Origin: PVC group bacterium
GTDB lineage: Bacteria > Auribacterota > Erginobacteria > Erginobacterales > Erginobacteraceae
Assembly (NCBI GenBank): GCA_043804695.1
Contig: JAZDIV010000051.1
Location: forward strand, 1-30,119
Direction: 5' to 3'
DNA length: 30,119 nt
Shown here: positions 1 through 26,571 of the stretch, piece after piece
How the letters are laid out: each line of letters starts with the position of its first letter
Position numbering within the stretch: the stretch's first letter is position 1
Program-made: the position numbers and the translations under genes
Notes under the pieces: model-generated
What the model was told of the DNA's origin: nothing
The model's input: the letters and a program-made list of their open reading frames with translations, nothing else
The model's database searches: none

Positions 1-343
<343 letters not shown>

Positions 344-637
344 TCATATAATTAAAGCATCTTTTGATAGATCTATGGAATCCTTGGCTCCGATATGTTC
401 TACTCGTCTTCGCCAGTTGCTCCCTAAAAAATAAAACCTCAGGCTGTCTTTCTCCGGAATGGTCTCATCTATCAGACGTTGGCGCAGGTCGGTCCATTGA
501 GCTGGTGTTACCTCACATTCAAAGACAGAGTATTGAACCCGCTGCCCATAATCAAGACAGGCTTTACCTACCCGGCGAAGCCGCCGGGCGCCCCCGGGAT
601 CCGTTGTTTCAACATCATAACTGACGAGCACCATCAT
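344..637 (-). CDS. cas2: CRISPR-associated endonuclease Cas2
   Basis: MMVLVSYDV...RLRRV..C..YGQRVQYSVFEC...DSLRFY. ATG at 637 preferred over TTG at 649. Confidence 0.97.
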   Translation of the reverse strand: MMVLVSYDVETTDPGGARRLRRVGKACLDYGQRVQYSVFECEVTPAQWTDLRQRLIDETIPEKDSLRFYFLGSNWRRRVEHIGAKDSIDLSKDALII

Positions 638-662
638 GGCTTTGTTCAAGCAAGAATAATTT

Positions 663-1694
663 TTATTTCCAGATAAATGGCGGATAGCCGTCTATATCCC
701 CTCGTAAGAACCGTGCAAGAAGAAGCGCTTGGACGTGGAACAACAGACCGATTTGCATCTGTTCCCCCAGGAAAGGATGCTCAATCATATCCTGTTTGCG
801 CTTCTGGTAAGCAACGAGAAGCGTCTTGCGCGTTTCATCTGTCATGTGGATGCCTCCCGCCTCACTCTTAATAAATCCGTCCTTCTGGACCTGTTTTAGA
901 TTGATCAACGAAAGGGCCAGACGATCAGCGAAAGGAGCGCGAAACTCCTCCATCATATCAAGGGCAAGGCTTGGTCTCCCGGGACGGTCACTATGAAGAA
1001 ACCCGACCTGCGGGTCCAATCCCACTGTCTCCAGAGCCGACCGAACGTCATGGAGCAGAATTGTATAGATAAAGGAGAGGAGGCAATTCACGTTGTCTTT
1101 CGGCGGACGCCGATTCCGGAACTGAAAAATAAAGTCATCATTCTGTGACGTAATCATAGAGTTGAAGACGCTGAAATATGACCTGGAAGCGTCGCCTTCC
1201 ATTCCCCGGATTTCATCCAACGATAACTCCTGACGCAGCTTTCTCAGGTGTTGGCCGACACGCGCCGCCATCTGTTTGATTTTTTCAGCACCACCACTTT
1301 CTCCATGATCACGGACGGCTCGCTGGAGTACCTTTCGACAATTTGCGATTTTCCCGATGACGATGGATCGTGCTATCTCCGCGCAAGCTTTCGGATTATC
1401 CGCTCTCCGATATTGTTCACGACGCAAAAGGACATTTCCGGAGACCGGGCCGTCGACACGAGCTAAAAAACGACCGTGCTCACTCATAAAGCTGATCGTC
1501 ACATTATTTTTACAGCAGAAGCCCAGCAGGAAAGGGCTGCATAACACATTCCCGAAACAGACGATGCTACCCAGGCTGATAATCGGCACTCGGAGCTTGG
1601 TCTCTCTATTTACACTGACGATAACCGATTCACCTTCTTTCGAGAGATACGCGCCCTGGGTAGTGACGAAAAGTGTATTCAGGCATCTCTTCAT
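663..1694 (-). CDS. cas1: Type I-C Cas1 integrase
   Basis: 343 aa with NTLFVTTQGAYL, GNVLLRREQY, RGMEG, GFLH.DRPGRPSLALDMMEEFR and terminal YPPFIWK. Confidence 0.98.
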   Translation of the reverse strand: MKRCLNTLFVTTQGAYLSKEGESVIVSVNRETKLRVPIISLGSIVCFGNVLCSPFLLGFCCKNNVTISFMSEHGRFLARVDGPVSGNVLLRREQYRRADNPKACAEIARSIVIGKIANCRKVLQRAVRDHGESGGAEKIKQMAARVGQHLRKLRQELSLDEIRGMEGDASRSYFSVFNSMITSQNDDFIFQFRNRRPPKDNVNCLLSFIYTILLHDVRSALETVGLDPQVGFLHSDRPGRPSLALDMMEEFRAPFADRLALSLINLKQVQKDGFIKSEAGGIHMTDETRKTLLVAYQKRKQDMIEHPFLGEQMQIGLLFHVQALLLARFLRGDIDGYPPFIWK

Positions 1695-2338
1695 TGATCG
1701 TAATCCGATACTTCCGCTTCGATCATTCTTTTTAAATAGTTTGTTGTTGAACGATATCGAGACCTAATTTTGGGAACGCATAGATCGTAAAGAGAACAGC
1801 TTTCGCATTTTTTCCCATATTCGGCTGCCGGAGTAATACCCTTCTCAAATAGTTCATGGACCTGTCGAGCCTTATTCTCCGTTTCCTGCCGTAAACATTC
1901 ATCGAATTCAACATCCTTACGATGTCGGGTTTTTCCGTAATATAAAGCGCCATGTTCAATCCGAACTTCGAGCATCTCCTCAAGGCAGATAGCTTGAGCG
2001 CATAACTGGACTTCATCACAGCGATCGTCCTTGGGTTTGCCCCGCTTATGCTCAACCGGGAAAGGCTTCCACATTTCCCTTTCCCGGTGGAACTCGACCA
2101 CATCGGCAATTCCGGCAATCCCTAAACGGAGAGATTTTAAAAGAACGCTATACTCAACCCGAACATCTCCCCTCGTCTCCTGGCCGCCCTGTTCAACCCT
2201 TTCATGGAGAATCCGCCCTTCGGCGGTGAAACGATTCTCCTCCCACAACCGCTCCAGATGGATCAATGCGCATTGCCGAGGACAGAAGAAATAATGCTGC
2301 AGCGCTGATATTGGAATCAACTCATCTTCTGCGTACAT
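1691..2338 (-). CDS. cas4: Cas4 prespacer-processing nuclease
   Basis: ISALQHY.FCPRQ, G.ADVVEF, PVEHKRGK, QLCAQA.CLEEM and C-terminal C..CSL..LC (Fe-S cysteines). ATGA overlap with cas1. ATG at 2338 is the likely start. Confidence 0.97.
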   Translation of the reverse strand: MYAEDELIPISALQHYFFCPRQCALIHLERLWEENRFTAEGRILHERVEQGGQETRGDVRVEYSVLLKSLRLGIAGIADVVEFHREREMWKPFPVEHKRGKPKDDRCDEVQLCAQAICLEEMLEVRIEHGALYYGKTRHRKDVEFDECLRQETENKARQVHELFEKGITPAAEYGKKCESCSLYDLCVPKIRSRYRSTTNYLKRMIEAEVSDYDQ

Positions 2339-2404
2339 AGCGACTCTCGTAATATCCACTACTGTAAAAATCAGAGGAGTCAGTCCGTTTCATCCGCTTG
2401 GTCC

Positions 2405-3298
2405 CTACTGTGCTTCTTCGGCGCGTTCGAGCCGCACATAGCGACTCAATTTGGCGCAAAGCACCTCTCCCAAGCTTGGCTTGTCTTCCCGATAAAGAGA
2501 GATCAGTCGTTTGCCCTCCTGCTGGTAGAGCTTGAGCTTTTTAAACATCCCGATCTTATAGTCGATCGTATCCATCCCCCAGTACTCAATATAAACATCG
2601 AACTCGGGGAGATAGAAATCCGGCCTGATGGCATACCCCTCGATAATGCGCATGCGCTCGTCGTAGCGGTAGGCGATGCCATGGCGGCTGAGGAACTCCG
2701 CGATCATGCGCTCACCCTCGGACTGAACGAGGGTGCCGTTATGGGAGCGGATGGTCTTATTTAGTTCCACCCGGGTGTCGAAGTTGCGGCGCTCAAGGTA
2801 GACCTCATCAAAGCACTTATCGCAGAACACGCGCTGGAAGGCGCGTTGACTCCGGGCATATTCGTCCGCATCCACCTGGGCGCCGCACCGCCGGCAGCGG
2901 TGTTTGGCTTGTTCAGCTGCAATGCGGAGCGCTTCGCGGATGGTCTTGCCCGCAGAGCGCACACCTCGCTTCACGTAGTCTTTCTCTGCCGGATTCCTGA
3001 AAAGGTCGCGTAGATCATCCAGAGCTTCTCTGGCGTGGACTCCAAATGCCCCTAACGCCTTGGCTGCATACTGGCGGACTTGCGGATGTGCATCCGCAAG
3101 CAGGGGCCGCAGAGTATGCACTGCGGGACCGGGGTGTACGATACCCGCTAATTTCCCCAGCGCGGATGCCGCCAGCCGCCGAACCAGCGCCGATTTCGAA
3201 CGGGTCAATGCCGCCAGCTCATCGAACGCGTCAGCATTCGCGCTCTTGCCTAAGGCTGTAGCGCGCGCGGCCAGGTGTCTTTCATTGACATGATCCAT
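2405..3298 (-). CDS. HEAT-repeat / C4 zinc finger / PD-(D/E)xK-like nuclease fusion, inserted in the cas operon
   Basis: HEAT motifs VRRLAASALGKL and VRQYAAKALGAF; CRRC...CDKC; C-terminal SEGERMIAEFL...YRYD...PDFYLP...YIEYWG...K. Confidence 0.85.
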   Translation of the reverse strand: MDHVNERHLAARATALGKSANADAFDELAALTRSKSALVRRLAASALGKLAGIVHPGPAVHTLRPLLADAHPQVRQYAAKALGAFGVHAREALDDLRDLFRNPAEKDYVKRGVRSAGKTIREALRIAAEQAKHRCRRCGAQVDADEYARSQRAFQRVFCDKCFDEVYLERRNFDTRVELNKTIRSHNGTLVQSEGERMIAEFLSRHGIAYRYDERMRIIEGYAIRPDFYLPEFDVYIEYWGMDTIDYKIGMFKKLKLYQQEGKRLISLYREDKPSLGEVLCAKLSRYVRLERAEEAQ

Positions 3299-3474
3299 CG
3301 TGTCTTACCCCGGTATCATGACTTGTTCCGCGTCCAGAGGACGCTCCACGGCGTCATCTATCCTCCATGCGACCGGAGGCAGTCGGAACGACGCCCCGGA
3401 GGTCGCCTGCCAGTGTTGGCCAATGCCCGTAAATGGTGTGGATGCAGAGTTTTTTCTCCATCTGCGAGACTATG

Positions 3475-4341
3475 TCAAATCATCTCGATCAGCTCGACGC
3501 CCTGGGGGACCTTATCTCGATCAATCTTTAGCTCATAGTCCGAAAACGCCCGCGGCGGCTTCGATTCGTCATTGCGCTTTATGGTCACCAGCTCAAATAA
3601 CTTGTGCGCGGGAGCATTTCCCAGTTTACTATCGTGTTTGAAAACGATCAATTTACGGGTTGTCATCTCCCCCCTCGCGGCAGACCGGTCTTGTTCGAAC
3701 ATATTGGTCAGGGATTCCCACAACAAACTTAGATCCTCTTCGCTGAATCCGGTCTGCTCAGCCAGAGGCGCCGAGACAAATCCATGGCAAAGATAAAGAC
3801 CATAAGGAACGGTGAATTTGCGCCCCATGGTTCGTTCCTTTTCCAGATCCCTCTCATTTGTCACGGCCATCCTCGTGATACAATGCTCCAGCGGAACTAT
3901 TTGATCCACACTTCTGGCAAAGGTTAATTGAATCGGACCACGAACCTGGCCGGCATTAACTTCTGTTGTCATTACCGCTCCGAATGCCCTGATATCAAAG
4001 AAGTTTCCACACATCCAGGCGGTGATTTTGGCCGCTTCTTCTTTAACTTTAGGGAGCTTTTTAGGCTGTGGCTTGAGCTCGTAGGCTTTATAAGCTCGTT
4101 CGTGCTCACGATTGAGAACTGCTTTTTCTTTAATGTATATTTCATAAGGTGGCTCATCGTCCTTCAAAACGCCGACATAATTTCTCACCTTACGTTTGAT
4201 ACATACATCCGTGACCAACCCATCCCCGGTTTCCGGATCCACTCGGGGAAGGTTTCCCGCGTCGGGGTCACCATTGGGGTTGCCGTCTTTTACATCAAAC
4301 AACAGAACAAAATCATACCGGTTTTTCAGAGCTTCATTCAT
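3475..4341 (-). CDS. cas7: Type I-C Cas7 (Csd2)
   Basis: [60 protein letters not shown]. Confidence 0.98.
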
Positions 4342-4720
4342 TGTTTACCTCCTTCTCTTTCGATGATTTTTCTTTTTTAGTATAAAAATCCTGCCGCTGG
4401 TGATAGTAGCCGATGGCGAATCTCCCCTGATCCGACAAGTCGAGATGAGCCGGAATGTTGTCGGCCTTCGCCATAATCTCACCAATGATTCTCTCAAAAT
4501 AGATCTTCAGTCCCTCGCTTTCGAGTTTGGCTATATGGTGACATTTTAGCTTGAGTAATCTCGGGAAGACTACCACAGGCGTACTTGACGCCGCTCCATA
4601 GAAAGAATCCCGGATAGTCGTATTGATCCCGGGATTTGCCGACTCCTGGACCCGTTCCAGTACGGCGAACAATCGCCCCAGCAGGTATCCAATGTTGGTA
4701 TTGTCTATATCAAGCGCCAT
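4334..4720 (-). CDS. cas11: Cas11c small subunit from internal in-frame start in cas8c
   Basis: In-frame ATG at 4720 ([12 protein letters not shown]...), preceded by AAGGAGG (4732-4726) with 5-nt spacing; 128 aa. Internal Cas11 translation is established for type I-C. Confidence 0.85.
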
Positions 4721-6094
4721 ATCAACCTCCTTTTGTTGTTTGTGATAATAACGAGATTTTCGAACAAGCACCGCTTTTATAAGAGCCGCCCGGGGATAAG
4801 AAACCTCCCTCTCCGCTCGAGCTCGACGCACAGCGGAAGAGAGAAGAGACATGGGATAGGGCGTGCCGTTCAATATTGAGAGCATCACTTCACCGGCCAA
4901 ATTTGACTGGATATTCTCCGATTTTCCTCCGACAGCAGTTGATACCAATAGACGAAATAAGGAAAGATATTCAGGGGACTTCGGACCATGGACAATAGCA
5001 CAATCAAGAAAGTGCTGCCGGATGGATGCGACAACTTCCTTGACCGTCCCCGCATACCAGAAACGAACTGCAATACGAGCAGCATTAGGCGCAAGTCCCA
5101 GTACATAAAAAGAAGTCGGATCCTCCTCAACCGGCGGCGCTCCTGATTTTGGCGCTGTGAAGAGCGCGCGCAGGGCAGCATTATCCTGATCGGATTCTCC
5201 TTTTGGTTGCACTCCGAATATCTCGGCAAAGATGGGTTCTATTTCGTGCTTCCTTTCCGCCCAGAAGATCGTGCTGGCATCTCCAACCTGGATCCTTTGG
5301 CGCGAATCCCGCGCAAGAAGTTCATTTAAAGCTGTCGTATAGGCAAACTCTGATTCTCCCCCGATCGGCGCATTGTAACCCTGCTTTTTTTCATAAGAAT
5401 TAAAAGCATATAAATTAAATGAAACAATATTGGCTCCGACTGATTGCGCTCCCCATATCCCTTTAATCGTGGTGTGAAGACGAATAGGAGTATTCAGTTC
5501 ACCATCGATCAAGCATTGCCGTTTTGGACCATCTTCAATATCCAGCATATTTTTAACAGCAGCAGTAACGGCTTTTATCTGACAAACCAGTTTGTTCGTA
5601 CCTTCAATTTGAAAACTGATAATCCCTCCACTTTCCTCGATTTCCTCCCATAAAGGATGTTCGAATACCTTCCTGAAATTCCCTTCATTTAAAAAATTAA
5701 ATACAGCGGAGACTGCCTCATTCTCTATTATTGAGGGGGTTTGGCGGATCCGTTCTATAAACGCCTGATGCTGAAGAACTGCACGCTTCTTAAGTCTTTC
5801 CGCGTCTTTTTTAGGATCGGGGCGAGGAATACCGAAAACATAAGCCTGATTATCCCACAATAAATTTGCGGCGATATTTACGGACTTTTTTACCCCATGA
5901 GGAACACGATATTTCCGGGCAATCTTTTTATTTCCTTCACCTATTCTGGTATCGACGATTCCTTGAAAGTTTCCTTTGTTATCAAGAATGATAATAAACG
6001 GGATTCTCTTTTTTTCGAAACCACGGGGAGCTATGTTTGAATTATTATCTTCCTTGAGCCGCCGGTAATATGCACTTAACGCCTGGAGGATCAT
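4334..6094 (-). CDS. cas8c: Type I-C Cas8c (Csd1)
   Basis: MILQAL..YY.RL, ANLLWD, VSFN...[44 protein letters not shown]. Confidence 0.97.
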
Positions 6095-6774
6095 GCCCGC
6101 ACCTCCTGTAATTCGAGTAGGGGAACCTTTATTCTCCCTTTCTCCAGTTTGGCTCGAAAGAAGCGTGCTTCAGGCTCTTTTTTGGAATAATCCATATCCA
6201 GGAGCATCCAGCCCAAATCCCGAGGTTCATCCAGTAATTCCGGTAATGGATCATGTAGCCCAATCAGCTTGAAATGAGCCGGGAATTCACGACATCCAAG
6301 ATAAGGCCGATGGAAACATTGGCCTTTTTTAACTCTACGTAAAAATATCTCCTGGAATTTGACGGCATTATCGGAATCGCCCACGTCTTCGGTCATTTCA
6401 AAAAACGCGTGGATGATATATTTTACATCCCGCAAAAAAAGGCCGGCTCGTTGCTGACGCTCTTTTTCAATGTATATTCCAAGATTTCCACGTCCCCGCT
6501 TCATCGCAGTTTTAACCGTGCCGGTTCGAATTACCTCACCTACTTCGTTTCTCCTCACTGATTCCCAGCGTATGGGGTTTAACAGGTCTATCTCAATAAC
6601 CCGCCATCGGATTGCCGGTTTCCAGAGAATTGCCTCCAGAATGCCCCTCGCGGCGGAAGGGGTCATAACATCGTACGAGACCCTCTCAACTTTCATCTCT
6701 GGACGAGTAAAACAGGCATTCCTTCCCCATACCAGCAAACGAAACGGATCGCTTTTAATGTTCGTTTTATTCAT
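6091..6774 (-). CDS. cas5: Type I-C Cas5d (pre-crRNA processing)
   Basis: ACFTRPEMKVERVSYDVMTPSAARGILEAILWKP, RRNEV, PYLGCREF, DLGWML. Confidence 0.98.
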   Translation of the reverse strand: MNKTNIKSDPFRLLVWGRNACFTRPEMKVERVSYDVMTPSAARGILEAILWKPAIRWRVIEIDLLNPIRWESVRRNEVGEVIRTGTVKTAMKRGRGNLGIYIEKERQQRAGLFLRDVKYIIHAFFEMTEDVGDSDNAVKFQEIFLRRVKKGQCFHRPYLGCREFPAHFKLIGLHDPLPELLDEPRDLGWMLLDMDYSKKEPEARFFRAKLEKGRIKVPLLELQEVRA

Positions 6775-6793
6775 TTTTCCTCCTTTGAATAGG

Positions 6794-9025
6794 CTAAGTA
6801 ATCAATAATTCCGGATTACAGGGGGCAGTTACATCATATTGAACTCCTGTTACCGGATGATACAAAATAGGGCTTATCTGAGCATAGGTCCCCGGGCAGT
6901 TTTTCAACTCTTCTATGCTTCCCGAATCTACCAGGTTGCTCATAGCATATCTGGGAATATTTACCACGAATCGCTGTAGTGATCGCATGAGTTCTCTATT
7001 GGGCCCGATTTTGTATAACAAATCGATCAGGTCTGCTCCTTTCCCATACCTGACCAGAACCGGAACCTGAGCATCTTTAATAATTTTAAATTCCCGGGAT
7101 GCTGAACGAAAACTGAAACGAAGTTCGGCATCCGAGGCCAGAAGTCGAAGGATATTGTGTCGATCAAGATTATCACCCTGCAACCAGTAAAGTTCCTTAA
7201 AAAAGGCATAAAAACGTTCCGGAGCTAAATGGTCGGTAGAATCTTCAGAAAGCAGCCGTCTTCCAAGTTCGCCGGCTTGCCGAAGGTAACCCACTGGGAA
7301 TGTACTGGGAGGAACGAATACCACAACTTTTCCGGCAATAAGCTCATCTTCCCGGTTGCATCGCCCGGCGGCTTGAGCGATGGAATCAAGTCCGGCTAGA
7401 GCTCGATAGACAACCGGAAAATCAAAATCAACTCCGGCTTCGACTATCTGGGTACTAATAACCTTGGTAGGAATACCGGCAGTGAGTTTATCCCTTATTT
7501 CTTCGATAACTTTCGATCGGTGAGCTCCACACATAAGTCCGGAAAGATGGAATGTTCCTTCCGGCATCAGGGAATGTAGATTAAAGCAGTCATCTCGGCG
7601 GTTAACGATGCAGAGGAGAGTCGGATATTGTTGTAGTTCGCCTGCAAGATCTGACCATGAAGTTGGCACGTTCAAATCTCCAGGCACTTCAAGAGAGATT
7701 CTTTTTAGTTTCCGATGGAGCGCATCGGGATTTTCAATGATTTCAATCGTGTCCGGAAGACCCGGGAAAGAAAAATCAGGTCCCTTTTGAGGTGAAAAAG
7801 CCGGCTGAGTTGCCGTGCTCAGCAGAAAAGTTGCTCCATAGTCCTCATTTAATTTCTTAATAACGAAAAGAATAGGATTTAAATATTCAGGAGGTAGAAG
7901 CTGCACTTCATCAAGAATAACAATACTGTTTACAATATTATGAAGTTTCCGGCATCGGCTTGTTTTGCAGGAAAAGAGAGATTCAAAAAATTGAACGGTG
8001 GTTGTGACGATGATTGGTGCATCCCAATTCTCGCATGCAAGACGGGTTTGGCTTGTTTCATTTTTTTCATTATCTTCTACTATATTACTGTGATGCTCAA
8101 TTACGGAGCCGCCGAAAATCTCCCTGAATTGGTCGGCGATCTGCTCAATGATACTGGTGTATGGGATTACATAGATGATCCGTCGTTTTTTATGAATTGT
8201 GGCATGGGAAAGTGCAAAAGCCATTGAAGAGAGGGTCTTACCCCCGCCGGTGGGGACGGATAATGTAAAAATACCCGGATCATTATCGACTTTCTTTTTA
8301 CACTGATTAAGAATATCCAAACGTATTCGGTTAATAGAACCGTAAGGATTTTTCAATGCGGATAATTTGTTTCCCATATATTGTTCGAAAATAGGGATAA
8401 GTTCTTCGATGAGTGGATAGCCTCCTCTTTTCTGGCTTTTTTGAAGGTTATAGAACCGTTCGGTGTCAATAAAATCGGCATCGACCAAGCAGGAGAACAG
8501 CATCCGTATCCATAAGGCAGGGTCGGCTCCCGGACGGGGACGATCAACCGGCATTTCACCGGAAAGAATATTCAAGGGAGGAGCAGACTTTTTTACATCA
8601 TTCAAGAGTTCTTCATTCTCAAGACGCCGGGTCAGAGCGGCATTACCCGTTTCGTCACTTTGCCAATCCGGTAAGCCGGCATGATGTCCCGCAATTAAAT
8701 AGGCAAGAATCCTTCCGGCCGGTCCTAATGTTTCAATTACATGTATAGCACCGGCGGTTGAGTGATCGACTCTTCCCACATTTGAACTATGCTCACCAGC
8801 AATACCCATGGAAGAATTTATCATTTTTTGAAACGCAACAGTATATTTTCCCAAATCATGCCAGAGGCCGGCCAGATAGCCCCATCCGGAACAACCGAAC
8901 TCGCCCGCGAATTTACCGGAAAGCTCGGCTACTTGTAGTAAATGATCTTCCAGAGGCTGCCACTCGCTTTCCGGCCGGTTGTCGAGACTGTGAGCGAAAT
9001 ATTTTTTCCCGGCAGCTGGGGTCAT
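6794..9025 (-). CDS. cas3: Cas3 HD nuclease-helicase
   Basis: AHS, HL, HDLGK, HH.GL and LVDAD HD-domain motifs; PTGGGKT, DEVQ, STAT and QAAGRCNR helicase motifs. Confidence 0.98.
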   Translation of the reverse strand: MTPAAGKKYFAHSLDNRPESEWQPLEDHLLQVAELSGKFAGEFGCSGWGYLAGLWHDLGKYTVAFQKMINSSMGIAGEHSSNVGRVDHSTAGAIHVIETLGPAGRILAYLIAGHHAGLPDWQSDETGNAALTRRLENEELLNDVKKSAPPLNILSGEMPVDRPRPGADPALWIRMLFSCLVDADFIDTERFYNLQKSQKRGGYPLIEELIPIFEQYMGNKLSALKNPYGSINRIRLDILNQCKKKVDNDPGIFTLSVPTGGGKTLSSMAFALSHATIHKKRRIIYVIPYTSIIEQIADQFREIFGGSVIEHHSNIVEDNEKNETSQTRLACENWDAPIIVTTTVQFFESLFSCKTSRCRKLHNIVNSIVILDEVQLLPPEYLNPILFVIKKLNEDYGATFLLSTATQPAFSPQKGPDFSFPGLPDTIEIIENPDALHRKLKRISLEVPGDLNVPTSWSDLAGELQQYPTLLCIVNRRDDCFNLHSLMPEGTFHLSGLMCGAHRSKVIEEIRDKLTAGIPTKVISTQIVEAGVDFDFPVVYRALAGLDSIAQAAGRCNREDELIAGKVVVFVPPSTFPVGYLRQAGELGRRLLSEDSTDHLAPERFYAFFKELYWLQGDNLDRHNILRLLASDAELRFSFRSASREFKIIKDAQVPVLVRYGKGADLIDLLYKIGPNRELMRSLQRFVVNIPRYAMSNLVDSGSIEELKNCPGTYAQISPILYHPVTGVQYDVTAPCNPELLIT

Positions 9026-10662: not shown

Positions 10663-11355
10663 TTATATCGTTGCCTCCGGCATTTTTCCAGAAATATAAC
10701 TATTCAACCGATGGGATTTTTGTCTCTTTTCCCGCTTCATGTGCCATCGGGCCGGATTGCCGGCGATATATTCACGGATTTCGTTCAATTCATGTTCGTC
10801 CCGAATAATATGTTCGTAATAATTCCGTTGCCATAATTTTCCGCTAAACGGTGGCCAATTGTGTTGTTTGACGCCATCGATATATCGTTTCGTTGTCATG
10901 GTCTTGAACCGGTGAACGATATCCGGCAATGATAATCCCGGATGGTCCGTAGGGGCAGGCTCCCGTGCCTGCTCTCCAGGCCCCTCTGCCTGCCCGGGGA
11001 ACGGGCACCCACAGGGGGGTGCCCCTACGGGTGGTCGGCCTGGCGGGCAACCACGGGGGGTTGCCCCTACGATGACGATACCGTGGACATGGTCGGGCAT
11101 GATTTGAAACACATCGATGCCGATACCCAGATAAAATATCGGTAATTCATCCCAGACTGTCCGGATCATACCCCCCGCGTCATTCAGTACCATTCTTCCA
11201 TCAATAATTTTCCCAAACAAATGTGCTCCGTTCTTTACACAGGTCGTGACATAATACGCCCCCTTCCGGGAATAATCGTATCCGCGCAAACGGATGGATC
11301 GGCGATTGTGGGAAATGCCATGGGAAAATTTCACATTCATTATATTGTTCGTCAT
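10663..11355 (-). mobile_element. REP-associated tyrosine transposase (RAYT, IS200/IS605 Y1 HUH family)
   Basis: RRSIRL.GYDYS..GAYYVT.C, HUH motif MPDHVHGI, WQRNYYEHIIR and catalytic Tyr in EYIAGNP. Confidence 0.93.
10949..11070. repeat. Three GTAG-type REP palindromes inside the RAYT ORF
   Basis: GTAGGGGC-palindrome units at 10949-10974 (+), 11003-11028 (-) and 11045-11070 (-). Confidence 0.88.
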
Positions 11356-11377
11356 GGGGCGAATTCTGGACCCCGGC

Positions 11378-11444
11378 GGTAAACCACGTGGGGTTGCCCC
11401 TACGGGTGGTCGGCCTTGCGGGCACCCACGGGGGGTGCCCCTAC
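11378..11444 (-). repeat. REP doublet upstream of RAYT
   Basis: Units at 11378-11403 and 11420-11444, both ending GCCCCTAC. The linker GGGTGGTCGGCCTTGC is nearly identical to 11029-11044. Confidence 0.88.
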
Positions 11445-11505
11445 GGTTGTTTATATATTAGTCGTTAATGGAGGGGAGTTTATTCCCAAATTTCTTTAAT
11501 CCGGG

Positions 11506-11534
11506 TTGACAATAAACAGCCTTTCCGCTACAAG
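11506..11534 (+). promoter_or_regulatory. Possible sigma70 promoter for trpR-like gene
   Basis: TTGACA-N17-TACAAG; the -10 box is imperfect. Confidence 0.45.
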
Positions 11535-11559
11535 TGTTTCTCTTCATAGAATCGTGGCC

Positions 11560-11826
11560 ATGGATTCGATTAAAGAAATTTCACGGAAGCTGTCGAAAAT
11601 AGAAGATCCGGAGCTTCTCGAGGGGTTCTTACGGGAGATTTTAACCCCGAAAGAAGTCAAGGACATTTCATCCCGCTGGGAGCTGGTTAAGCTGCTGGAG
11701 GAGGGAGTCAGTCAGCGGGAGATATCCCGCCGTCTGGGCCTGAGTCTCTGCAAGATCACCCGGGGCGCCCGGGAGTTAAAGAAGCCGGACTCGGCCCTGC
11801 GGAGAGTGATTGGAGAAAACCGCTAA
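11560..11826 (+). CDS. trpR: Trp repressor family protein (TrpR/YerC-YecD)
   Basis: FL.EILTPKE...ISSRW..VKLL..GVSQREIS..LGLSLCKITRG HTH; lies directly upstream of trpB2. ATG at 11560. Confidence 0.88.
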   Translation: MDSIKEISRKLSKIEDPELLEGFLREILTPKEVKDISSRWELVKLLEEGVSQREISRRLGLSLCKITRGARELKKPDSALRRVIGENR

Positions 11827-11870
11827 TCTCGCGAATCTTCACTGGGTTATGTCAAAACTAAATATGTGCG

Positions 11871-11998
11871 GATCAGGAAATCAGAGGACCAGAGGGAAGA
11901 GGATCAGAATATCAGGGGATCAGGCAGGGGAGCCGGACTCTCCTGGTAACCGGATATCCTGGTATTCTTCCCACTGATAAACTGATAACCTGATATTC
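11871..11998. repeat. Octamer tandem-repeat palindrome
   Basis: (ATCAG)-periodic left arm at 11871-11925 and a complementary (CTGAT) right arm at 11942-11998. Confidence 0.8.
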
Positions 11999-12067
11999 AA
12001 GTGGATAATCAGCCCGTCCATCTAATCTCCGGGCTTTGTAAAAAAGCTCTATTATAGGAGGTCTGTC

Positions 12068-13456
12068 ATGACCTTACGAGTCCTGTTGAATGAAGACGAG
12101 ATCCCGCGGCAGTGGTACAACCTGGCCGCCGATCTCCCCACGCCGCTCCAGCCGCCCCTGGGGCCGGACGGCAACCCCGTCACCCCCGACATGCTGGCCC
12201 CGGTCTTCCCGATGAACCTGATCGAGCAGGAGGTCAGCCGGGAGCGGTGGATCGACATCCCGGAAGGCATCCTCGAGATTCTCTACCGCTGGCGCCCGTC
12301 GCCGCTGCAGCGGGCAAAGTATCTGGAGGAAGCCCTCGGGACCCCGGCCCGGATTTATTACAAGAACGAAAGCCTGTCGCCGGCGGGGAGCCACAAGCCG
12401 AACACCGCGGTAGCCCAGGCCTGGTACAACAAGGAGTTCGGGATCGAGGCGCTCACCACCGAGACCGGCGCCGGCCAGTGGGGGAGCGCGCTCGCCTTCG
12501 CCTGCGCCATTTTGGGCCTGAAGTGCAAGGTCTTCATGGTGCGGATCAGCTTCGACCAGAAACCCTACCGGAAGGTGATGATGCAGACCTGGGGGGCGGA
12601 GTGCGTCGCCAGTCCCAGTACCGAGACCCAGGCCGGGCGGAACATCCTGGCCAGGCACCCCCACACCCCGGGGAGCCTCGGCATCGCCATCAGCGAGGCG
12701 ATCGAGGCGGCGGTGACCGACCAGACCGGCAAGACCCGTTACTCCCTGGGAAGCGTGTTGAACCATGTTCTCCTCCATCAGACCATCATCGGCCTGGAAG
12801 CGAAGAAACAGCTCAAAAAAATCGGTGAGAAGAAGGTCGATATCGTTATCGGCTGCGCGGGCGGCGGCAGCAACTTTGCCGGTCTCTCGTTCCCCTTCGT
12901 CGCTGACAAGATCAACGGGGCCGATATCGAGATCATCCCGGTGGAGCCCTATTCCTGTCCTACGATGACCGCCGCCCCCTTTGTTTACGATCACGGCGAC
13001 ACCGCGAAGATGACGCCCCTCCTGCCGATGTACTCTCTCGGTCACGATTTTATCCCGCCGCCGATTCATGCCGGAGGGCTCAGGTATCACGGCATGGCCC
13101 CGCTGGTCAGCCAGGCAATCGTCGAGGGTCTGCTCGCCCCCCGGGCCATCCATCAGCTGGAGTGTTATGAGTCGGCGATCCTCTTCGCCCGGACGGAGGG
13201 CATCATCATCGCCCCCGAGACCAGCCACGCGGTGGCGGCGGTGATCCAGGAGGCGAAGAAGGCGAAAGAGGAGGGGAAGGAGAAAGTCATCCTCTTCAAT
13301 TTGAGCGGACACGGGCTGATGGACCTTCTGGGCTACCAGAAATACTTCGACGAGGAACTTTTCGACTACGCCCTGCCCGAGGAGGATATCCACAAGTCGC
13401 TGGAGGCGTTGAAAGGGTTGCCGAAACCGTCCACGGCCAAGACCGGCAAATGGTAG
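12068..13456 (+). CDS. trpB2: Tryptophan synthase beta chain, TrpB2 type
   Basis: [15 protein letters not shown] (PLP lysine), [49 protein letters not shown]. Confidence 0.96.
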
Positions 13457-13465
13457 GGAGAAAAT

Positions 13466-13537
13466 AGTAAGCGGTAAGCGGTAAGCGGTTGGTGGTCAGC
13501 GGGCGCGATGGCGACTGCTTACTGCTCACTGCTTACC
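13466..13537. repeat. Heptamer tandem-repeat palindrome after trpB2
   Basis: (GGTAAGC)n left arm at 13466-13500 and (GCTTACT)n right arm at 13511-13537. Confidence 0.8.
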
Positions 13538-13584
13538 CCTCCGACTTCAAACTACTGGTGCTCTTAGACGAATGACGCTAAAGG

Positions 13585-13842
13585 ATGGATGAGCAATATG
13601 ACAGCGAGGAGATCTACTGCCGTCGGCTGGGGCATTACCTGACCTTCCGGTACTGCCGGTCGGAAAAGGGAGAACTCCCCTGCCCGAAGATACTTGACTG
13701 CTGGTGTGACCGGCTTCCCATCGGGGAGTTTCTCCATGATAATTACACGGAAGACGAGATTGCGGCGATCACGGCACCTGCCCGGCCCAAGATGGCGACA
13801 CTGATCGAGCTGATCGAGCGGGCGAAGAAGAGGGGGGGATAA
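13585..13842 (+). CDS. Small Cys/His-rich hypothetical protein
   Basis: 85 aa, YCRRLGH...YC...PC..I.DCW; co-oriented with trpB2. Confidence 0.8.
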   Translation: MDEQYDSEEIYCRRLGHYLTFRYCRSEKGELPCPKILDCWCDRLPIGEFLHDNYTEDEIAAITAPARPKMATLIELIERAKKRGG

Positions 13843-13846
13843 CGGT

Positions 13847-13917
13847 GGCGAATACAAGATTCGCCCCTACGGTAGGGTAATAAAATCCGAATGTAGGGGC
13901 GATCCTTGTGATCGCCC
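13847..13917. repeat. Inverted GTAG REP pair
   Basis: GGCGAATACAAGATTCGCCCCTAC (13847-13870, -) and GTAGGGGCGATCCTTGTGATCGCCC (13893-13917, +). Confidence 0.85.
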
Positions 13918-13947
13918 ACATGATTGGCGCCGGAGATTATTGTTGAA

Positions 13948-14181
13948 ATGAAAAGGACGATATTATTATCCGGAAACGAAGCGGTCGCCCGGGGAGCCTG
14001 GGAAGCGGGCGTGATTCTGGGGACCGGCTATCCGGGAACCCCGTCCTCGGAGATCCTGGAGAACCTGAACCGGTCGCCGCCCTTGGAGCGCCGGGCTTTA
14101 GACCTGTCAGGCCGGAGCAGGATCGGAATTATAAAGAACGGTAACGGTCAGGGTAACCCAGGCCGGTTGCGAACGAAGTGA
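13948..14181 (+). pseudogene. iorA: N-terminal fragment of indolepyruvate ferredoxin oxidoreductase alpha subunit
   Basis: [33 protein letters not shown], then loss of similarity and a stop at 77 aa (full IorA is ~600 aa). Confidence 0.85.
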
Positions 14182-14205
14182 GCTAATCATATAAGGAGGC
14201 AGGAT

Positions 14206-15114
14206 ATGAAAAAAGTGTTGGTGAGCGTGGTCCTGGTTGCCGGGCTGGTTATCCCCGCGTGTATTCTCGGGGGGCAGTCATCGGCGATCCTGGGGACCGA
14301 GGACTATTTTGTCGGGGCGCTTCCGCCCCCCGGGTTCCATTTCATCAATTACCTGGCCTACTACTACTCCGATGAGCTGAAAGATTATAACGGAGACAAG
14401 GCCCCGGTGGACTTCAAGGCCAACGTCGCGGCCGAGGTTCTCCGGGGGATATATGTCTCCGACATCGAAATCCTGGGAGCGAACCTGGGCTGGCACGTGG
14501 TGGTCCCCCTGGTTTACAAGGACATGGAGATCAAGGGGGTGTTCGACCAGTCCCGGGCCAGTCTGGGCGACATCTATGTCTCGCCGTTCCTGCTCGGCTG
14601 GCACTCGGAGATATTTCACTGCGTGGCCGGCCTCGACATCATCGCCCCCTCCGGCCAGTACAACAAGGACTACCCGGTCAATATCGGGAACAATCACTGG
14701 ACTTTCGAGCCGGCGGTGGCCGTTTCCCTGATCCTTCCCGAGGGGCTGAGCGTGGACGTCAAGCTGATGTATGACATCCACACCAAGAACACCGACTGGA
14801 TCAATCCAGCCACCGGGATAGAAGATGATTATTTAACCGGCCAGCAGTTCCACCTCGACTATAACGCCGGTTATATGATTGTGGACAACTTTCGGCTCGG
14901 TGTCTGCGGTTATTACCTGATTGGCCTTCAGGACGACAAACTGGATGGCAGCAAGGTCCCGGACTCGGAAGAGCAGGTCCTGGCGGTCGGCCCCTCCGCC
15001 ATGTACAGCGTCAGCAAACAGCTCCACCTGGTGGCCAAGGTCCAGTTTGAGACACTGTCCGAGAACCGGCCCGAGGGGATCATGAGCTGGCTGAAGCTGA
15101 TCTACAGCTTTTAA
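14206..15114 (+). CDS. SphA / phenol MetA-degradation family outer-membrane beta-barrel channel
   Basis: Signal peptide, GALPPPG, LGDIYV.P..LGWH, AP.GQY...N.G.N.W, C-terminal Phe; RBS AAGGAGG. Confidence 0.85.
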   Translation: MKKVLVSVVLVAGLVIPACILGGQSSAILGTEDYFVGALPPPGFHFINYLAYYYSDELKDYNGDKAPVDFKANVAAEVLRGIYVSDIEILGANLGWHVVVPLVYKDMEIKGVFDQSRASLGDIYVSPFLLGWHSEIFHCVAGLDIIAPSGQYNKDYPVNIGNNHWTFEPAVAVSLILPEGLSVDVKLMYDIHTKNTDWINPATGIEDDYLTGQQFHLDYNAGYMIVDNFRLGVCGYYLIGLQDDKLDGSKVPDSEEQVLAVGPSAMYSVSKQLHLVAKVQFETLSENRPEGIMSWLKLIYSF

Positions 15115-15141
15115 AAACAGCGGCTTTGCCGCTGTTTTTAA
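15111..15141. terminator. Bidirectional intrinsic terminator
   Basis: Perfect TTAAAAACAGCGGC-TTT-GCCGCTGTTTTTAA hairpin overlapping the stop codon. Confidence 0.85.
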
Positions 15142-15290
15142 GCGAGAGTATTCAGTCATACCCGCCACGGATTATTGATAATTGCGGGATGATGCGGTAC
15201 CCCGCTGTTCACGACAAAACGGTAGTATCCACGCGTTGTCGAATATTTTAGACACCGGCCCGCTCATCCTCTGCAGGATGAAAACAGAGG

Positions 15291-15320
15291 AGCCCCCCCG
15301 ATGGTATCGGGGGGGCTTTC
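15291..15320 (+). terminator. GC-rich hairpin, probable terminator
   Basis: AGCCCCCCCGAT-GGT-ATCGGGGGGGCT followed by a pyrimidine-rich tract. Confidence 0.55.
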
Positions 15321-15344
15321 CTCTTTCAGGAGTTTCCTTTTCTA

Positions 15345-15373
15345 TTGACACGGGGGGGGCTTTTCTCTATTCT
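15345..15373 (+). promoter_or_regulatory. Sigma70 promoter for transcarbamylase gene
   Basis: TTGACA (15345-15350)-N17-TATTCT (15368-15373). Confidence 0.7.
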
Positions 15374-15379
15374 CCACCC

Positions 15380-15435
15380 CTTTTTTCGGCATGCGGGTAA
15401 GCGGGAAATCCCGCTTACCCGCATGCCGAAAAAAG
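15380..15435. repeat. Perfect 27-bp inverted repeat
   Basis: CTTTTTTCGGCATGCGGGTAAGCGGGA-AA-TCCCGCTTACCCGCATGCCGAAAAAAG. Confidence 0.95.
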
Positions 15436-15493
15436 AAAAATTAACTAAATGAGCGCCGCAGGCGCTAATTTAAAAAGGAGGAACAGAGTACGG

Positions 15494-16573
15494 ATGAAGA
15501 CCAATAATTTCCTGGGACGGGACTGGATTGATGCCGAACTGGACTACACCAGGGAGGAATGGGAGACCATGATCGATATCGCCCTGGAGCTGAAGCGCCG
15601 CTTCGCGCTCCGGGAGGACACGTCGCACCTGCTCAAGGGCCGGACGCTCTTCAGCATGTTCTTCAACCAGTCGCTCCGGACGCGCTCCACTTTTGCCGCC
15701 GGCATTATGCAGCTGGGCGGGAATTATCTCGAACTGGAGCCGGGCAAGACATACACCCCGGCCCGGAAGGGATTTGACATCCCCTACAAGACCGAGCGGA
15801 TCAAGGATGTCGCCGAGATGCTCGACCGGGTCGGCGACGCCATCTCGATCCGGATGTACGGCCCGCCGGCCGGGTGGAACTACGGTTTCGCCAACGCCAC
15901 CATGAAGGAGTTCGCCGAGTACGCCTCCATCCCGATCATCAACATGGAGTGCGACAAGTACCATCCCTGCCAGGCCCTGGCCGATATGATCACCATCAAG
16001 GAAAAGTTCGGATCCTTCAAGGGGCTCAACCTGACGATGTCCTTCGCGTATTCCGGCTCGATCGAGAAGCCGCGCGCGGTCCCGCAGAGCGTCATTCTGG
16101 CCGGCACGCTGATGGGGATGAACGTCACCCTGGCCCACCCGGAGGGGTACGATCTCGATCCCGAGGTCATCAAGCAGTGCCAGAAGAACGCGCAGGAGCA
16201 GGAAGGCTCGTTCCGGATCGTCAATGATTTCGACGAGGGGTTCAAAGACGCTCACGTCGTTTACCCGAAGGCCTGGGGAGCGTACACCTGCTTCAACTAC
16301 TTTGATCCCAAGACGGGCAAGAAGATCAAGGATCAGGATCACAAGGAGGCGACTCGCGTCAACGAGCTGGCCCAGGGGTGGATGACGACCCGGAAGCAGA
16401 TGGACCTGGTCGACCATAAGGGCATCTACATGCACTGTCTTCCCGCCGACCGCGGCCAGGAAGTCACCGATGAGGTCATCGACGGTCCCCGCTCGGTGGT
16501 GATCGATGAGGCCGAAAACCGCCTCCACGCCCACAAGGCGATCATGGCCCTGATCATGGGCGGCCGGTTATAA
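15494..16573 (+). CDS. Transcarbamylase of the OTCase superfamily (knotted AOTCase/YgeW-like), substrate uncertain
   Basis: FFNQSLRT, HPCQALAD, HCLPADRG, EAENRLH. AAGGAGG precedes the ATG at 15494. Confidence 0.92.
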   Translation: MKTNNFLGRDWIDAELDYTREEWETMIDIALELKRRFALREDTSHLLKGRTLFSMFFNQSLRTRSTFAAGIMQLGGNYLELEPGKTYTPARKGFDIPYKTERIKDVAEMLDRVGDAISIRMYGPPAGWNYGFANATMKEFAEYASIPIINMECDKYHPCQALADMITIKEKFGSFKGLNLTMSFAYSGSIEKPRAVPQSVILAGTLMGMNVTLAHPEGYDLDPEVIKQCQKNAQEQEGSFRIVNDFDEGFKDAHVVYPKAWGAYTCFNYFDPKTGKKIKDQDHKEATRVNELAQGWMTTRKQMDLVDHKGIYMHCLPADRGQEVTDEVIDGPRSVVIDEAENRLHAHKAIMALIMGGRL

Positions 16574-16592
16574 ACCGCAGATGATGCGGATT

Positions 16593-16633
16593 AAAAAGGG
16601 ACCGTGGTCCTTGCGGACTCCGGTCCCTTTTTT
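16593..16633 (+). terminator. Intrinsic terminator
   Basis: AAAAAGGGACCG...CGGTCCCTTTTTT. Confidence 0.8.
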
Positions 16634-16763
16634 AATGTTTGAGGATAGCTCGAATGCCGTCACCGATATGGCTGATGACCTGTGCCGAACCGGATAATAT
16701 TTCTTAGATATCTTTTCCCAATTCCGGTACAATACGGTACAATACCGGAGGAAAAATTTTATT

Positions 16764-17714
16764 ATGAAGAGAGCGCTGGTTACAGGAGGGGCGGGTTTCC
16801 TCGGTTCCCATCTCTGCGAATTTCTGCTCGATCGAGATTTTCAGGTGGTCGGCATGGATAACCTGATCACCGGCTCGGTCCAGAATATTGAGCACCTGGC
16901 GGGGATTGAGAATTTCACGTTCATCAAGCAGGATGTCACCGAGTACATCTACCTCCCCGGGCCGCTCGATTACATCTTCCATTTTGCCTCCCCCGCCAGC
17001 CCGATCGATTACCTGGAACTGCCCATCCAGACTCTCAAGGTCGGCTCCCTGGGGACTCACAAGACGCTCGGCCTGGCCAAGGCCAAGAAGGCGACTTTTC
17101 TTCTGGCCTCCACCTCGGAAGTTTACGGGGACCCGCTGGTCCATCCCCAGAAGGAAGATTACTGGGGGAACGTCAACCCGATCGGACCCCGGGGGGTGTA
17201 TGATGAGGCCAAGCGGTTTGCCGAGGCGCTGACCATGGCCTATCACCGGTTTCACGGAGTTGATACCAGGATCGTGCGGATCTTTAACACCTTCGGGCCC
17301 CGGATGAGAGCCCGCGACGGGCGGGTCGTCCCGGCGTTTATCTGCCAGGCGCTGGCCGGAGAGCCGCTGACCGTCTTTGGAGACGGCTCGCAGACCAGGA
17401 GCTTCTGCTTCGTCTCCGATCTGATCGACGGCATCTTCCGGCTGGCTTCGTCTTCGGAAACCGGTCCGGTTAACATCGGCAACCCGCGCGAGATGACGGT
17501 CGGCCGGTTCGCCGAACTGATCATCCGCCTGACCGGCAGCTCCAGCCGGATCGAGTATCGCCCCCTCCCGGTTGACGACCCCAAGATCCGCCAGCCGAAC
17601 ATTGCCAAGGCGAAAAGAGTCCTGGGCTGGGAGCCCCGGGTGGAACTGGAGGAGGGATTGAGACAGACCATCGACTGGTTCCGCATTAAATTAGCGCCGG
17701 CGGCGTTAATTTAA
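16764..17714 (+). CDS. UDP-glucuronate decarboxylase family (extended SDR)
   Basis: [47 protein letters not shown]. Confidence 0.94.
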
Positions 17715-17825
17715 ATAATCACATCTCGCTGAAATAAAAATATAGTGAGAACGATTTGAGAATTAGTTTAAGTCCAACACTTCACGCCAAAACGTTAATT
17801 CCAAAAAATTTATAGAGGGAGGAAT

Positions 17826-19193: not shown

Positions 19194-19204
19194 AATTACT
19201 ATAT

Positions 19205-19257
19205 AACCACGAAGAACACACCCGTAGGACAACCGTACGGGGGTGCTCTTCGTGGTT
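19205..19257. repeat. CCACGAAG-family hairpin
   Basis: AACCACGAAGAACAC...GTGCTCTTCGTGGTT with an inner CCCGTA/TACGGG stem. Confidence 0.75.
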
Positions 19258-19281
19258 TTATTGTGCGCACAAGAAGTGCGG

Positions 19282-20370: not shown

Positions 20371-20506
20371 GGCGGGAGAATAAACGGGAAAAACAAAGAT
20401 ATGCCCGCCGCACCTGCTTTTCAATCCGGATCCCCGCTCTCAGGATCTGTTGGCCGGTTTGTTCGCCATCTGATTTCATGATTGTTCTCCCGGTTGTTCT
20501 GGTGGT

Positions 20507-20746
20507 AGCTCTACCCTGCTCGAAAATTATGTCACCTTGAAACCAAATCAATTAAAACCACGAAGGACACGAAGGTCACGAAGATTTAAAAAAAATGAGC
20601 TAAATTTCGTTTGTTCCTCAACTATTCTTCGTGTCCTTCGTGCCTGCGCGCTGAAGCGCTACGGCGCGCAAGCGTGATCTTCGTGGTGAATTACTTCGTT
20701 GTTTTAGATGAAATCTTCAAAATACCTTTTCGAGTAAGGTATAGCT
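20507..20746. mobile_element. MITE-like element copy 1
   Basis: Terminal IRs AGCTCTACCCTGCTCGAAAA / TTTTCGAGTAAGGTATAGCT (17/20 match) enclosing a 9-mer-repeat palindrome. Confidence 0.7.
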
Positions 20747-21469: not shown

Positions 21470-21527
21470 GGCACGAGGGGGAAATGAACTCGATTATGTT
21501 TGATCCGGGCTGCCGTCGGGACCGGGT

Positions 21528-21736
21528 AACTATACCCTGATCGAAAAGCGTATCCCTTTGAAACAAAACTAATTAAAACCACGGAGGACACAGAGAACAC
21601 GGAGAATTTTAAAAAAATGCGCGAAATCTATTCATTTATCTGTTTTTTCTCCGTGGTCTCCGTGATCTCCGTGGTAAAATTCAATCCATCTTCGAGAATA
21701 AGCCGCTTAAAATACCTTTTTGAGCAAGGTATAGCT
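21528..21736. mobile_element. MITE-like element copy 2
   Basis: Terminal IRs AACTATACCCTGATCGAAAAG / CTTTTTGAGCAAGGTATAGCT; internal organisation collinear with 20507-20746. Confidence 0.7.
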
Positions 21737-21782
21737 ACGTGTGCGGCATATCCTCCCGGCGGGGGGAGAGGAAGGCTCACTG

Positions 21783-22442: not shown

Positions 22443-22482
22443 TCTGCCCTCCCTGATGATAAGCTTATGAAACACCTCCGGG

Positions 22483-23247: not shown

Positions 23248-23318
23248 AATGTGCTCCTCGGTGTCAGAAAAAACCTCCCGATCCTTTGCATCCTTTGCGA
23301 GGATGATTATATCAAATC

Positions 23319-26570: not shown

Positions 26571-26571
26571 G

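Follow-up and report, generated by a model that had tools for sequence, protein, structure and literature searches.

Does a nuclease gene that sits between the effector and adaptation genes of a type I-C CRISPR operon belong to the CRISPR machinery, or does it only lodge there? Newly found accessory functions come mainly from genes that recur within CRISPR operons, and we took up this question for a 30,119-nt stretch of DNA from a PVC (Planctomycetes, Verrucomicrobia and Chlamydiae) group bacterium of the phylum Auribacterota (GenBank assembly GCA_043804695.1, contig JAZDIV010000051.1, positions 1 to 30,119), hereafter the window. The gene in question (2405..3298, minus strand, ATG start) encodes a 297-aa protein that we call HCP, for HEAT / Cys4 zinc-ribbon / Vsr-like PD-(D/E)xK nuclease protein. 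Our analysis supports the architecture, fold class and family membership of HCP, the mobility of its gene, the structure of an RNA leader in front of it and the figures for its association with cas genes. Comparison of related loci indicates that the gene moves independently of the surrounding cas genes; this cassette behaviour, together with the conserved structured leader, is what is new here.

The HCP gene begins 176 nt past the stop codon of its upstream neighbour, cas7 (Csd2; 3475..4341, minus; Pfam Cas_Cas7, E 1.4e-111), and ends 45 nt ahead of the start of its downstream neighbour, cas4 (1691..2359, minus; Pfam Cas_Cas4, E 1.1e-27). The open reading frames (ORFs) and the Pfam assignments of these neighbours confirm a preliminary description of this DNA, made from its letters alone, which had reported a co-oriented 297-aa ORF between cas7 and cas4 of an intact I-C operon. 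A scan of the HCP gene strand revealed neither a sigma-70-type promoter nor a terminator, and PVC promoters may differ from the sigma-70 type.

Profile searches and structural models together indicate that HCP consists of a HEAT-repeat arm followed by a Cys4 zinc ribbon and, at the C-terminal end, a Vsr-like PD-(D/E)xK domain. The arm (residues 1-130; 2909..3298, minus) is matched by the Pfam families HEAT_2, HEAT, HEAT_EZ and HEAT_PBS, with HEAT_2 reaching E 7.7e-12 over residues ~12-112, and residues 3-129 are helical in an AlphaFold 2 (AF2) model, with a predicted local distance difference test score (pLDDT) of 89-98. Foldseek with the entire model returned HEAT/alphaRep proteins only, and searches of PDB sequences gave the same outcome whether the query was the protein itself or a profile. 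The zinc ribbon (residues 133-165; 2804..2902, minus) is predicted from conservation and from the model: all 35 aligned homologues share C135, C138, C159 and C162, and the region forms short strand pairs resembling a zinc ribbon, while matches to zinc-finger Pfam families are weak. N-terminal HEAT repeats and a CxxC...CxxC finger had both been proposed in the preliminary description, and both stand.

The putative nuclease domain covers residues ~176-287 (2438..2773, minus). Q192, S193, G195, E196, R225, D227-E232, E238-G241 and K254 are invariant in the same 35 sequences; they include the acidic, candidate metal-binding residues E196, D227 and E238, whose putative equivalence to E25 and D51 of Vsr is deduced from motif order rather than from superposition. 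We modelled the C-terminal part (residues 131-297) separately (pLDDT 82; predicted template modelling score 0.62) and compared it with 48,161 chains using VIA-align. The matches included the catalytic domain of I-Bth0305I (3r3p; Z 8.6, root-mean-square deviation (rmsd) 3.3, 92 aligned residues), Vsr (1cw0; Z 7.9, rmsd 3.0, 96 aligned, 21% identity), NGO0050 (3hrl; Z 7.8, rmsd 2.9, 87 aligned), VRR-NUC (4qbn; Z 7.5, rmsd 3.1, 86 aligned) and TnsA (1t0f; Z 6.5, rmsd 2.8, 95 aligned). All ten top rows were restriction-fold nucleases or RAP domains, with Z from 6.1 to 8.6. We assign the domain to the Vsr branch of the restriction fold because this list is consistent, though single scores could be due to chance: Z values of 7.8-8.6 border on those reached by unrelated chains, which weighs against the reading developed below.

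Other searches agree on the general type of enzyme. Foldseek with the C-terminal part alone ranked 3r3p first (E 5.8e-3), and the domain is matched by PADLOC PDC-S69 (1.5e-18), by a PHROGs family annotated as Holliday junction resolvase (phrog_9019, 1.3e-9) and by two PHROGs homing-endonuclease families (phrog_3339, 3.9e-4; phrog_9084, 5.4e-3). Pfam gave nothing past threshold for the domain alone, with Vsr at E 0.2 only, and an NCBIfam scan of HCP had no match above cut-off. HCP had no match to Cas_Cas4 (PF01930) at E <= 0.1, a family that the adjoining true cas4 matches at 1.1e-27, none to Y1_Tnp in Pfam, and none to ToxN/AbiQ-type families in any library scan. The invariant residues and the VIA-align and Foldseek matches show that the Vsr/DUF559-like C-terminal pattern pointed out earlier is genuine, and its suggested occurrence in UvrD-type helicases is borne out by plasmid tblastn matches to the HCP C-domain under genes for a "UvrD-helicase domain-containing protein".

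By fold, the modelled HCP nuclease comes nearest to Vsr and to the EDxHD homing enzymes, minus their conserved His and their N-terminal modules. As set out in PMC3239194, EDxHD homing endonucleases have E, D, H and D residues, the His being the general base, carry NUMOD DNA-binding motifs and reside in introns or inteins. HCP resembles I-Bth0305I, the prototype of these enzymes, in having a Vsr-like catalytic domain, a separate, putative N-terminal recognition part and a gene that behaves as mobile DNA. It differs in that its C-domain has no invariant or near-invariant His after residue 71, the matching stretch reading E-Y-W-G, and, measured against that description, in having HEAT repeats and a zinc ribbon in place of NUMODs, a free-standing gene, and many sites instead of one homing site. 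With Vsr and DUF559-type proteins (1cw0, 3hrl) HCP shares the fold class, to which it adds the HEAT arm and the zinc ribbon; no dcm-type methylase partner was seen adjoining HCP in the annotated loci.

The preliminary description had taken this architecture to be without a name. PADLOC-DB v2.0.0, however, holds a full-length model, PDLC01150 or "HEAT_CxxC_PD-DEXK", which HCP matches throughout (450 bits, E 7.9e-136; residues 1-287 against profile positions 1-287 of 288) and whose three named elements are all present in HCP in the same order. The PADLOC entry gives this name with no visible function, system or reference; names of this kind probably stem from lists of CRISPR-linked genes compiled by the Koonin group (Shmakov 2018, Makarova 2020). 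Relatives in public sources are named merely "HEAT repeat domain-containing protein" or "hypothetical". A literature search, which did not extend to supplementary profile lists that may name the gene, found no paper describing the HEAT_CxxC_PD-DEXK architecture, and in the available text of the CoCoNuT paper and of the 2025 CRISPR classification paper HEAT occurs in other senses only. The family is large and its sequences are strongly conserved, with 2,500 matches at E <= 0.001 among 8,000 scored candidates, the best 120 of which are 67-86% identical to HCP. The HCP gene therefore belongs to a catalogued but unstudied family. Searches of phages, plasmids and viral contigs yielded no full-length HCP; the nuclease domain alone has distant relatives there.

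To see where HCP genes reside, we collected 284 stretches carrying relatives, one genome per species, and counted contexts at the best 80 loci (60-83% identity), which are mostly from PVC-group metagenome-assembled genomes (MAGs), Akkermansia included; a copy also occurs in assemblies of the cultivable species Akkermansia muciniphila. Neighbours were annotated by tblastn with the window's Cas proteins and with cluster representatives, the clusters being verified by Pfam. Of the 80 loci, 43 were found to lie within cas operons (26 I-C, 12 I-E and 5 with other cas genes), and three more had only a regulator combining a helix-turn-helix (HTH) domain with peptidase M78. When only the 27 loci flanked by at least 5 kb on either side are counted, 13 lie in cas operons, 13 have no cas gene and one has the regulator only. 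All cas genes detected at HCP loci share the strand of the HCP gene, in line with the CRISPR link proposed earlier, and HCP genes occur in type I cas operons far more commonly than expected from chance placement.

The position within these operons is not fixed. The HCP gene uses at least five slots, namely cas7|cas4, regulator|cas3, cas3|cas4, cas6e|cas7e and cse1|cse2. At the I-C loci it lies exactly between cas7 and cas4 in 15 cases, between the M78 regulator and cas3 in three, and between cas3 and cas4 in two; at the I-E loci it occupies cas6e|cas7e in six and cse1|cse2 in four. At all 80 loci the gene is free-standing between other genes, and more than 20 different contexts were recorded. 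At the genome level, I-C Cas7 was found in 4 of 5 relatives with full-length HCP versus 4 of 36 without it, samples that kinship makes non-independent. Among ten genomes with a well-flanked stand-alone HCP copy, Cas1 was present somewhere in six.

Several features of individual loci deserve mention. A protein of ~400 aa with an XRE-type HTH and a peptidase M78 (ImmA/IrrE-like) domain is encoded directly upstream of HCP at six loci (L019, L039, L044, L048, L050 and L071); at three of the six the pair heads a cas3-first operon, and at L039 no cas gene lies within 5.9 and 8.9 kb of it. Six I-E operons (L025, L027, L045, L047, L052 and L058) end, after cas2, in a gene of the RNase_H_2 superfamily (Pfam PF13482, 3e-29). 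At L079 (2884-4413) the HCP ORF is extended by ~220 residues before its stop codon, just upstream of cas4. The ten longer HCP forms that were found arise by read-through into genes for esterases or nitroreductase-type enzymes, and in none is HCP fused to a Cas protein. A candidate HCP-Cas4 fusion at L030 was rejected, the HCP gene there having its own stop codon.

One indication of movement comes from the closest operon found, in genome G003 of the same family as the window's genome, whose Cas7, Cas8c, Cas1 and Cas4 are 93%, 90%, 88% and 80% identical to those of the window. Its cas7-cas4 junction is empty, with cas4 following 50 nt past cas7, and its HCP copy (79% identical) lies on a separate contig. 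Relative to this junction, the window carries an extra segment at 2385..3469 (minus) of ~1,085 nt, whose ends were placed within a few bases by alignment to L094 and by reading both junctions. In the same-genus genome G001, HCP (83%) stands beside unrelated genes, and neither I-C Cas7 nor any Cas1 was found. The gene is accordingly no fixed part of this I-C lineage. Among the observations that the preliminary description had named as speaking against its view are close relatives of the operon lacking the gene, which do occur, and homologues lying mostly outside CRISPR loci, which is not what the 43 of 80 loci show.

A search of 41 genomes, namely that of the window and those of 40 relatives, found I-C Cas7 in eight, and HCP occupies the cas7-cas4 junction in two of them, the window's own and G025. 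The other six junctions comprise three that are empty and three with other small genes (L095 2382-3204, L096 2394-2942 and L097 828-1497). The occupants in G007 and G009 are genes of 182-184 aa that appear ORF6N-like from reading of the translations rather than from a family scan, and G035 has ORFs of 109 aa and 59 aa. The cas7-cas4 junction thus seems to be a general slot for additional genes.

We next compared context with phylogeny. On an 81-tip HCP tree, the context labels require 35 changes versus a shuffled mean of 39.0, a nearly random scatter; the label for no cas genes needs 25 changes (shuffled mean 26.2), I-E 11 changes on 12 tips, and I-C 19 changes on 27 tips. Strongly supported sister pairs can have unlike contexts (L024/L036, L016/L030, L021/L044 and L025/L028), and in these pairs the stretch of similar DNA starts 35-230 nt upstream of the ATG and extends no further than the stop codon. 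Two copies per genome were found in three cases (L003 with L035, L061 with L065, and G025), and copies decayed by stop codons in G002 and G006. Base composition is in keeping with movement. Within the window, the G+C content of the cas genes (operon without the insert) is 0.466, with a third-position G+C (GC3) of 0.40-0.55, and that of the host chromosome (rest of the window) is 0.593, with GC3 of 0.80-0.88; HCP with its leader has 0.588, and the HCP coding sequence alone a GC3 of 0.668. The I-C operon itself looks recently acquired, because its G+C lies ~13 points below that of 11500-30119 (0.466 versus 0.593).

What moves with the coding sequence is a leader of ~95 nt upstream of HCP, which occurs in every context type. 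In the window it lies at 3317..3411 (minus; 85.9 bits with the covariance model, R1) and was recognized from conservation across loci. RNAalifold on 26 leader copies predicts a long-range stem, closing onto the conserved GACGCCGTG box, together with a terminal hairpin (3330..3344, minus, in the window; a 6-bp stem with a 3-nt loop) followed by a conserved AACAAGTC tail that often abuts the ATG. The hairpin does not cover the Shine-Dalgarno site in most copies. With the covariance model, 81 sources gave 84 matches at E <= 1, and 79 of these lie on the HCP gene strand. Upstream of HCP a copy is present in 57 of 81 sources, and 14 of 80 loci have one downstream, past the stop codon; at E <= 1, 24 of the 80 loci have no upstream copy.

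Covariation supports the predicted structure. In an alignment that is biased towards the covariance model, 89.0% of cells are paired versus 79.7% after shuffling, with slid controls at 22-49%, and there are 87 double-change cells versus 24.5 in shuffles. All five of the five terminal-hairpin pairs examined have changed on both sides across the 84 copies, with 93.7% of cells paired. The fold belongs to the sense strand, because G-U pairs are frequent. This signal came from comparison between loci and not from folding of the window's spacers: the upstream spacer folds no better than its shuffles (z -1.22), and the downstream spacer does worse. A candidate pseudoknot between a GACTTGTT box and the AACAAGTC tail lacks overall support: 13 of 70 copies pair perfectly, yet on average 6.31 of 8 positions pair versus 6.02 with shuffled tails.

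The leader is closely tied to the HCP gene. When six genomes were scanned whole, with up to 150 candidates scored per genome, confident matches (E <= 0.01) lay solely beside the HCP gene, and the lone weak match elsewhere (E 0.016) was in the window's own genome. At L002, three tandem gene-less copies directly follow the HCP gene (2584-2840), and two more lie ~3 kb on, after a gene for a beta-propeller repeat protein (5763-5988); six copies were found in this genome, all on one contig. Against Rfam 15, the leader scored below all gathering scores, with best E-values of 3-9 to unrelated families and no known ribozyme or riboswitch among them. It showed no similarity, judged by eye, to the I-C CRISPR repeat.

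Taken together, these data lead us to favour, tentatively and at a little under an even chance, the reading that HCP is a portable nuclease module, repeatedly gained and kept by type I CRISPR loci as a dispensable accessory and not as a subunit fitted to Cascade or Cas3. The gene would be the payload of a self-contained cassette of ~1.0-1.1 kb, made up of the ~95-nt structured leader and the coding sequence, that entered the I-C cas7-cas4 spacer separately from the surrounding cas genes. Such cassettes move independently among chromosomal sites of PVC-group bacteria, and those inside cas operons point the way these are transcribed. Recognition would fall to the HEAT arm together with the zinc ribbon, and the Vsr-like domain, with its acidic residues intact, would cut DNA. 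HCP would then act as a non-essential accessory, co-transcribed and expressed with the cas genes and possibly of benefit to defence or adaptation, that probably also works alone.

A number of observations weigh against this reading. The context shares describe the best 80 of 284 relatives, the other 204 lying outside the count. No cas gene was seen in the DNA examined at 34 of the 80 loci, a label limited by contig ends at many of them; the neighbours there are ordinary housekeeping genes and are varied (trpA/manC, mutS, carB/ffh, rpsO, pheT and others). Cas1 was not found in 4 of the 10 genomes, incomplete MAGs, with a stand-alone HCP copy, and for this reason any CRISPR role of HCP would be dispensable. 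Neither a target-site duplication nor a recombinase was found for the cassette. From locus to locus, the G+C content of HCP tracks that of the flanking DNA (r = 0.88), and four Kiritimatiellales-type loci, which form one clade, keep HCP in the same trpA-manC slot; residence therefore appears to be often long and vertical, rather than constant hopping.

How far do other explanations account for the same facts? HCP might be a dedicated CRISPR ancillary nuclease whose HEAT arm docks onto Cascade, Cas3 or Cas4-Cas1-Cas2, acting as a second effector, as a backup against anti-CRISPRs or as a maker of prespacers. Such a role would fit its co-oriented position where the effector module meets the adaptation module, seen in at least 15 of 26 I-C loci, its place inside the I-E effector genes in 10 of 12, its accompanying I-C at the genome level even when unlinked, and its inclusion in PADLOC-DB, whose models cover defence proteins both known and candidate. 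We nevertheless consider it improbable. Near-identical proteins occur in I-C, I-E and housekeeping contexts without subtype-specific clades, although the I-C and I-E effectors belong to different Pfam families, and this argues against the Cascade- or Cas3-recruited partner suggested in the preliminary description. A subunit fitted to Cascade or Cas3 is rejected because the same protein serves I-C, I-E and cas-free settings and because the nearest operon lacks HCP at the junction. The two occupied junctions among eight I-C operons, the unrelated ORF6N-like genes that take its place in G007 and G009, the genomes with stand-alone HCP in which Cas1 was not found, and the lack of any Cas fusion among the longer forms point the same way. 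The still stronger proposal of a core I-C component was likewise rejected, given the two of eight junctions, the 93%-identical sister operon without HCP and the 19 changes for 27 tips.

A purely selfish cassette, homing-endonuclease-like or bounded by repeats, for which cas operons are tolerant and often exchanged landing places and which brings the host no gain, is a more serious contender, yet still an unlikely one. The likeness to the I-Bth0305I catalytic domain and to homing-endonuclease families, the cassette's own leader with a second motif copy past the stop codon at some loci and gene-less tandem copies at L002, the scattered contexts, the empty sister site, the decayed copies and the fusions to enzymes other than Cas proteins are all consistent with it. 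It leaves unexplained why about 50% of loci should lie in cas operons, in at least five slots of two subtypes and always co-oriented, which neither random nor homing insertion accounts for, and a homing enzyme would be expected at one recurring target site rather than in more than 20 contexts. The three domains have stayed 60-86% identical across phyla, the base composition has adjusted to the host, inheritance is vertical in one clade, and no full-length copy was found on a phage, plasmid or viral contig. The leader could represent a new class of cis-acting structured RNA, perhaps self-processing or nuclease-binding, that makes HCP pluggable into any operon by freeing or gating its messenger inside a foreign transcript, with the cassette as a mobile innate nuclease repeatedly recruited by type I CRISPR systems as a second, Cas-independent weapon or as a supplier of DNA fragments to spacer uptake; we regard this combination as rather unlikely. 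It is quite improbable that HCP is RNA-directed, binding or cutting RNA and its own leader before others, in autoregulation, in releasing its own messenger from the transcript of the operon or as a toxin held by RNA as in type III toxin-antitoxin systems. A leader that covaries as a sense-strand structure, is essentially confined to the vicinity of HCP in the genomes searched and has tandem gene-less copies at L002 would suit this idea, and the fold matches extend to RAP-type domains, namely a T. gondii mitoribosome protein (Z 8.6), whose chain we take to be RAP-type, and FASTKD4 (Z 6.8). FASTKD4 is termed a Vsr-like RNA-binding protein in PMC11879112. Against it stand the match to no known ribozyme or riboswitch, a long-range pairing not above shuffled tails, the 24 loci without an upstream leader copy, and the annotation of sequence relatives of the nuclease domain as DNA enzymes. 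A ToxIN-like type III toxin-antitoxin system in particular was rejected, since there is usually one upstream leader copy and tandem copies occur only downstream, at one locus.

If HCP is the portable accessory that we favour, tests shift their focus away from a Cascade partner, because the cassette appears to be self-moving with its leader, uses several I-C and I-E slots and persists without CRISPR. The useful question becomes whether this nuclease aids type I interference or spacer uptake, and by what route the cassette moves. HCP offers a clean natural example of the traffic between mobile DNA and defence loci, in which filled and empty junctions are both available.

Two known arrangements invite comparison with the cassette. 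T4-like phages carry free-standing homing endonuclease genes whose translation is restrained by a leader hairpin; HCP resembles these in being wedged, co-oriented, into a foreign operon and in having a conserved hairpin immediately ahead of its start codon, and differs in being chromosomal and bacterial, with no phage copy found, in its nuclease family and in leaving the Shine-Dalgarno site mostly uncovered. The association of repetitive extragenic palindromic (REP) sequences with REP-associated tyrosine transposases (RAYTs) likewise pairs one nuclease-type gene with flanking structured repeats, some of them gene-less, but the HCP leader motif was not dispersed in the six genomes scanned, and HCP is no HUH/Y1 transposase.

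The remaining genes of the window's operon are in the usual layout. The complete type I-C operon, cas3-cas5-cas8c-cas7-[insert]-cas4-cas1-cas2, runs over 344..9025 on the minus strand, with the following assigned by Pfam: cas3 (6794-9025), cas5 (6091-6774), cas8c/Csd1 (4334-6094), cas1 (663-1694) and cas2 (344-649). It is followed by a CRISPR array (1..144, minus) with at least three copies of a 32-nt I-C type repeat, which runs off the contig end.

Directly upstream of cas3, the segment 9111-10637 (minus) encodes a 379-aa DnaN-like sliding-clamp paralogue, supported by TIGR00663 (E 4e-24, under cut-off) and by Pfam DNA_pol3_beta_3, and a 126-aa ORF without a family. Their GC3 of 0.63-0.68 is intermediate, as in the HCP gene, and neither was found at any of the 80 HCP loci. 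Further on, 10663-11441 contains an IS200-like Y1 transposase ORF (Pfam Y1_Tnp, 4.7e-7) and two copies of a 65-nt G+C-rich palindromic repeat (11002-11066 and 11377-11441), one within the ORF and the other just upstream of it. This ORF and its palindromes look like a RAYT with REP-type repeats.

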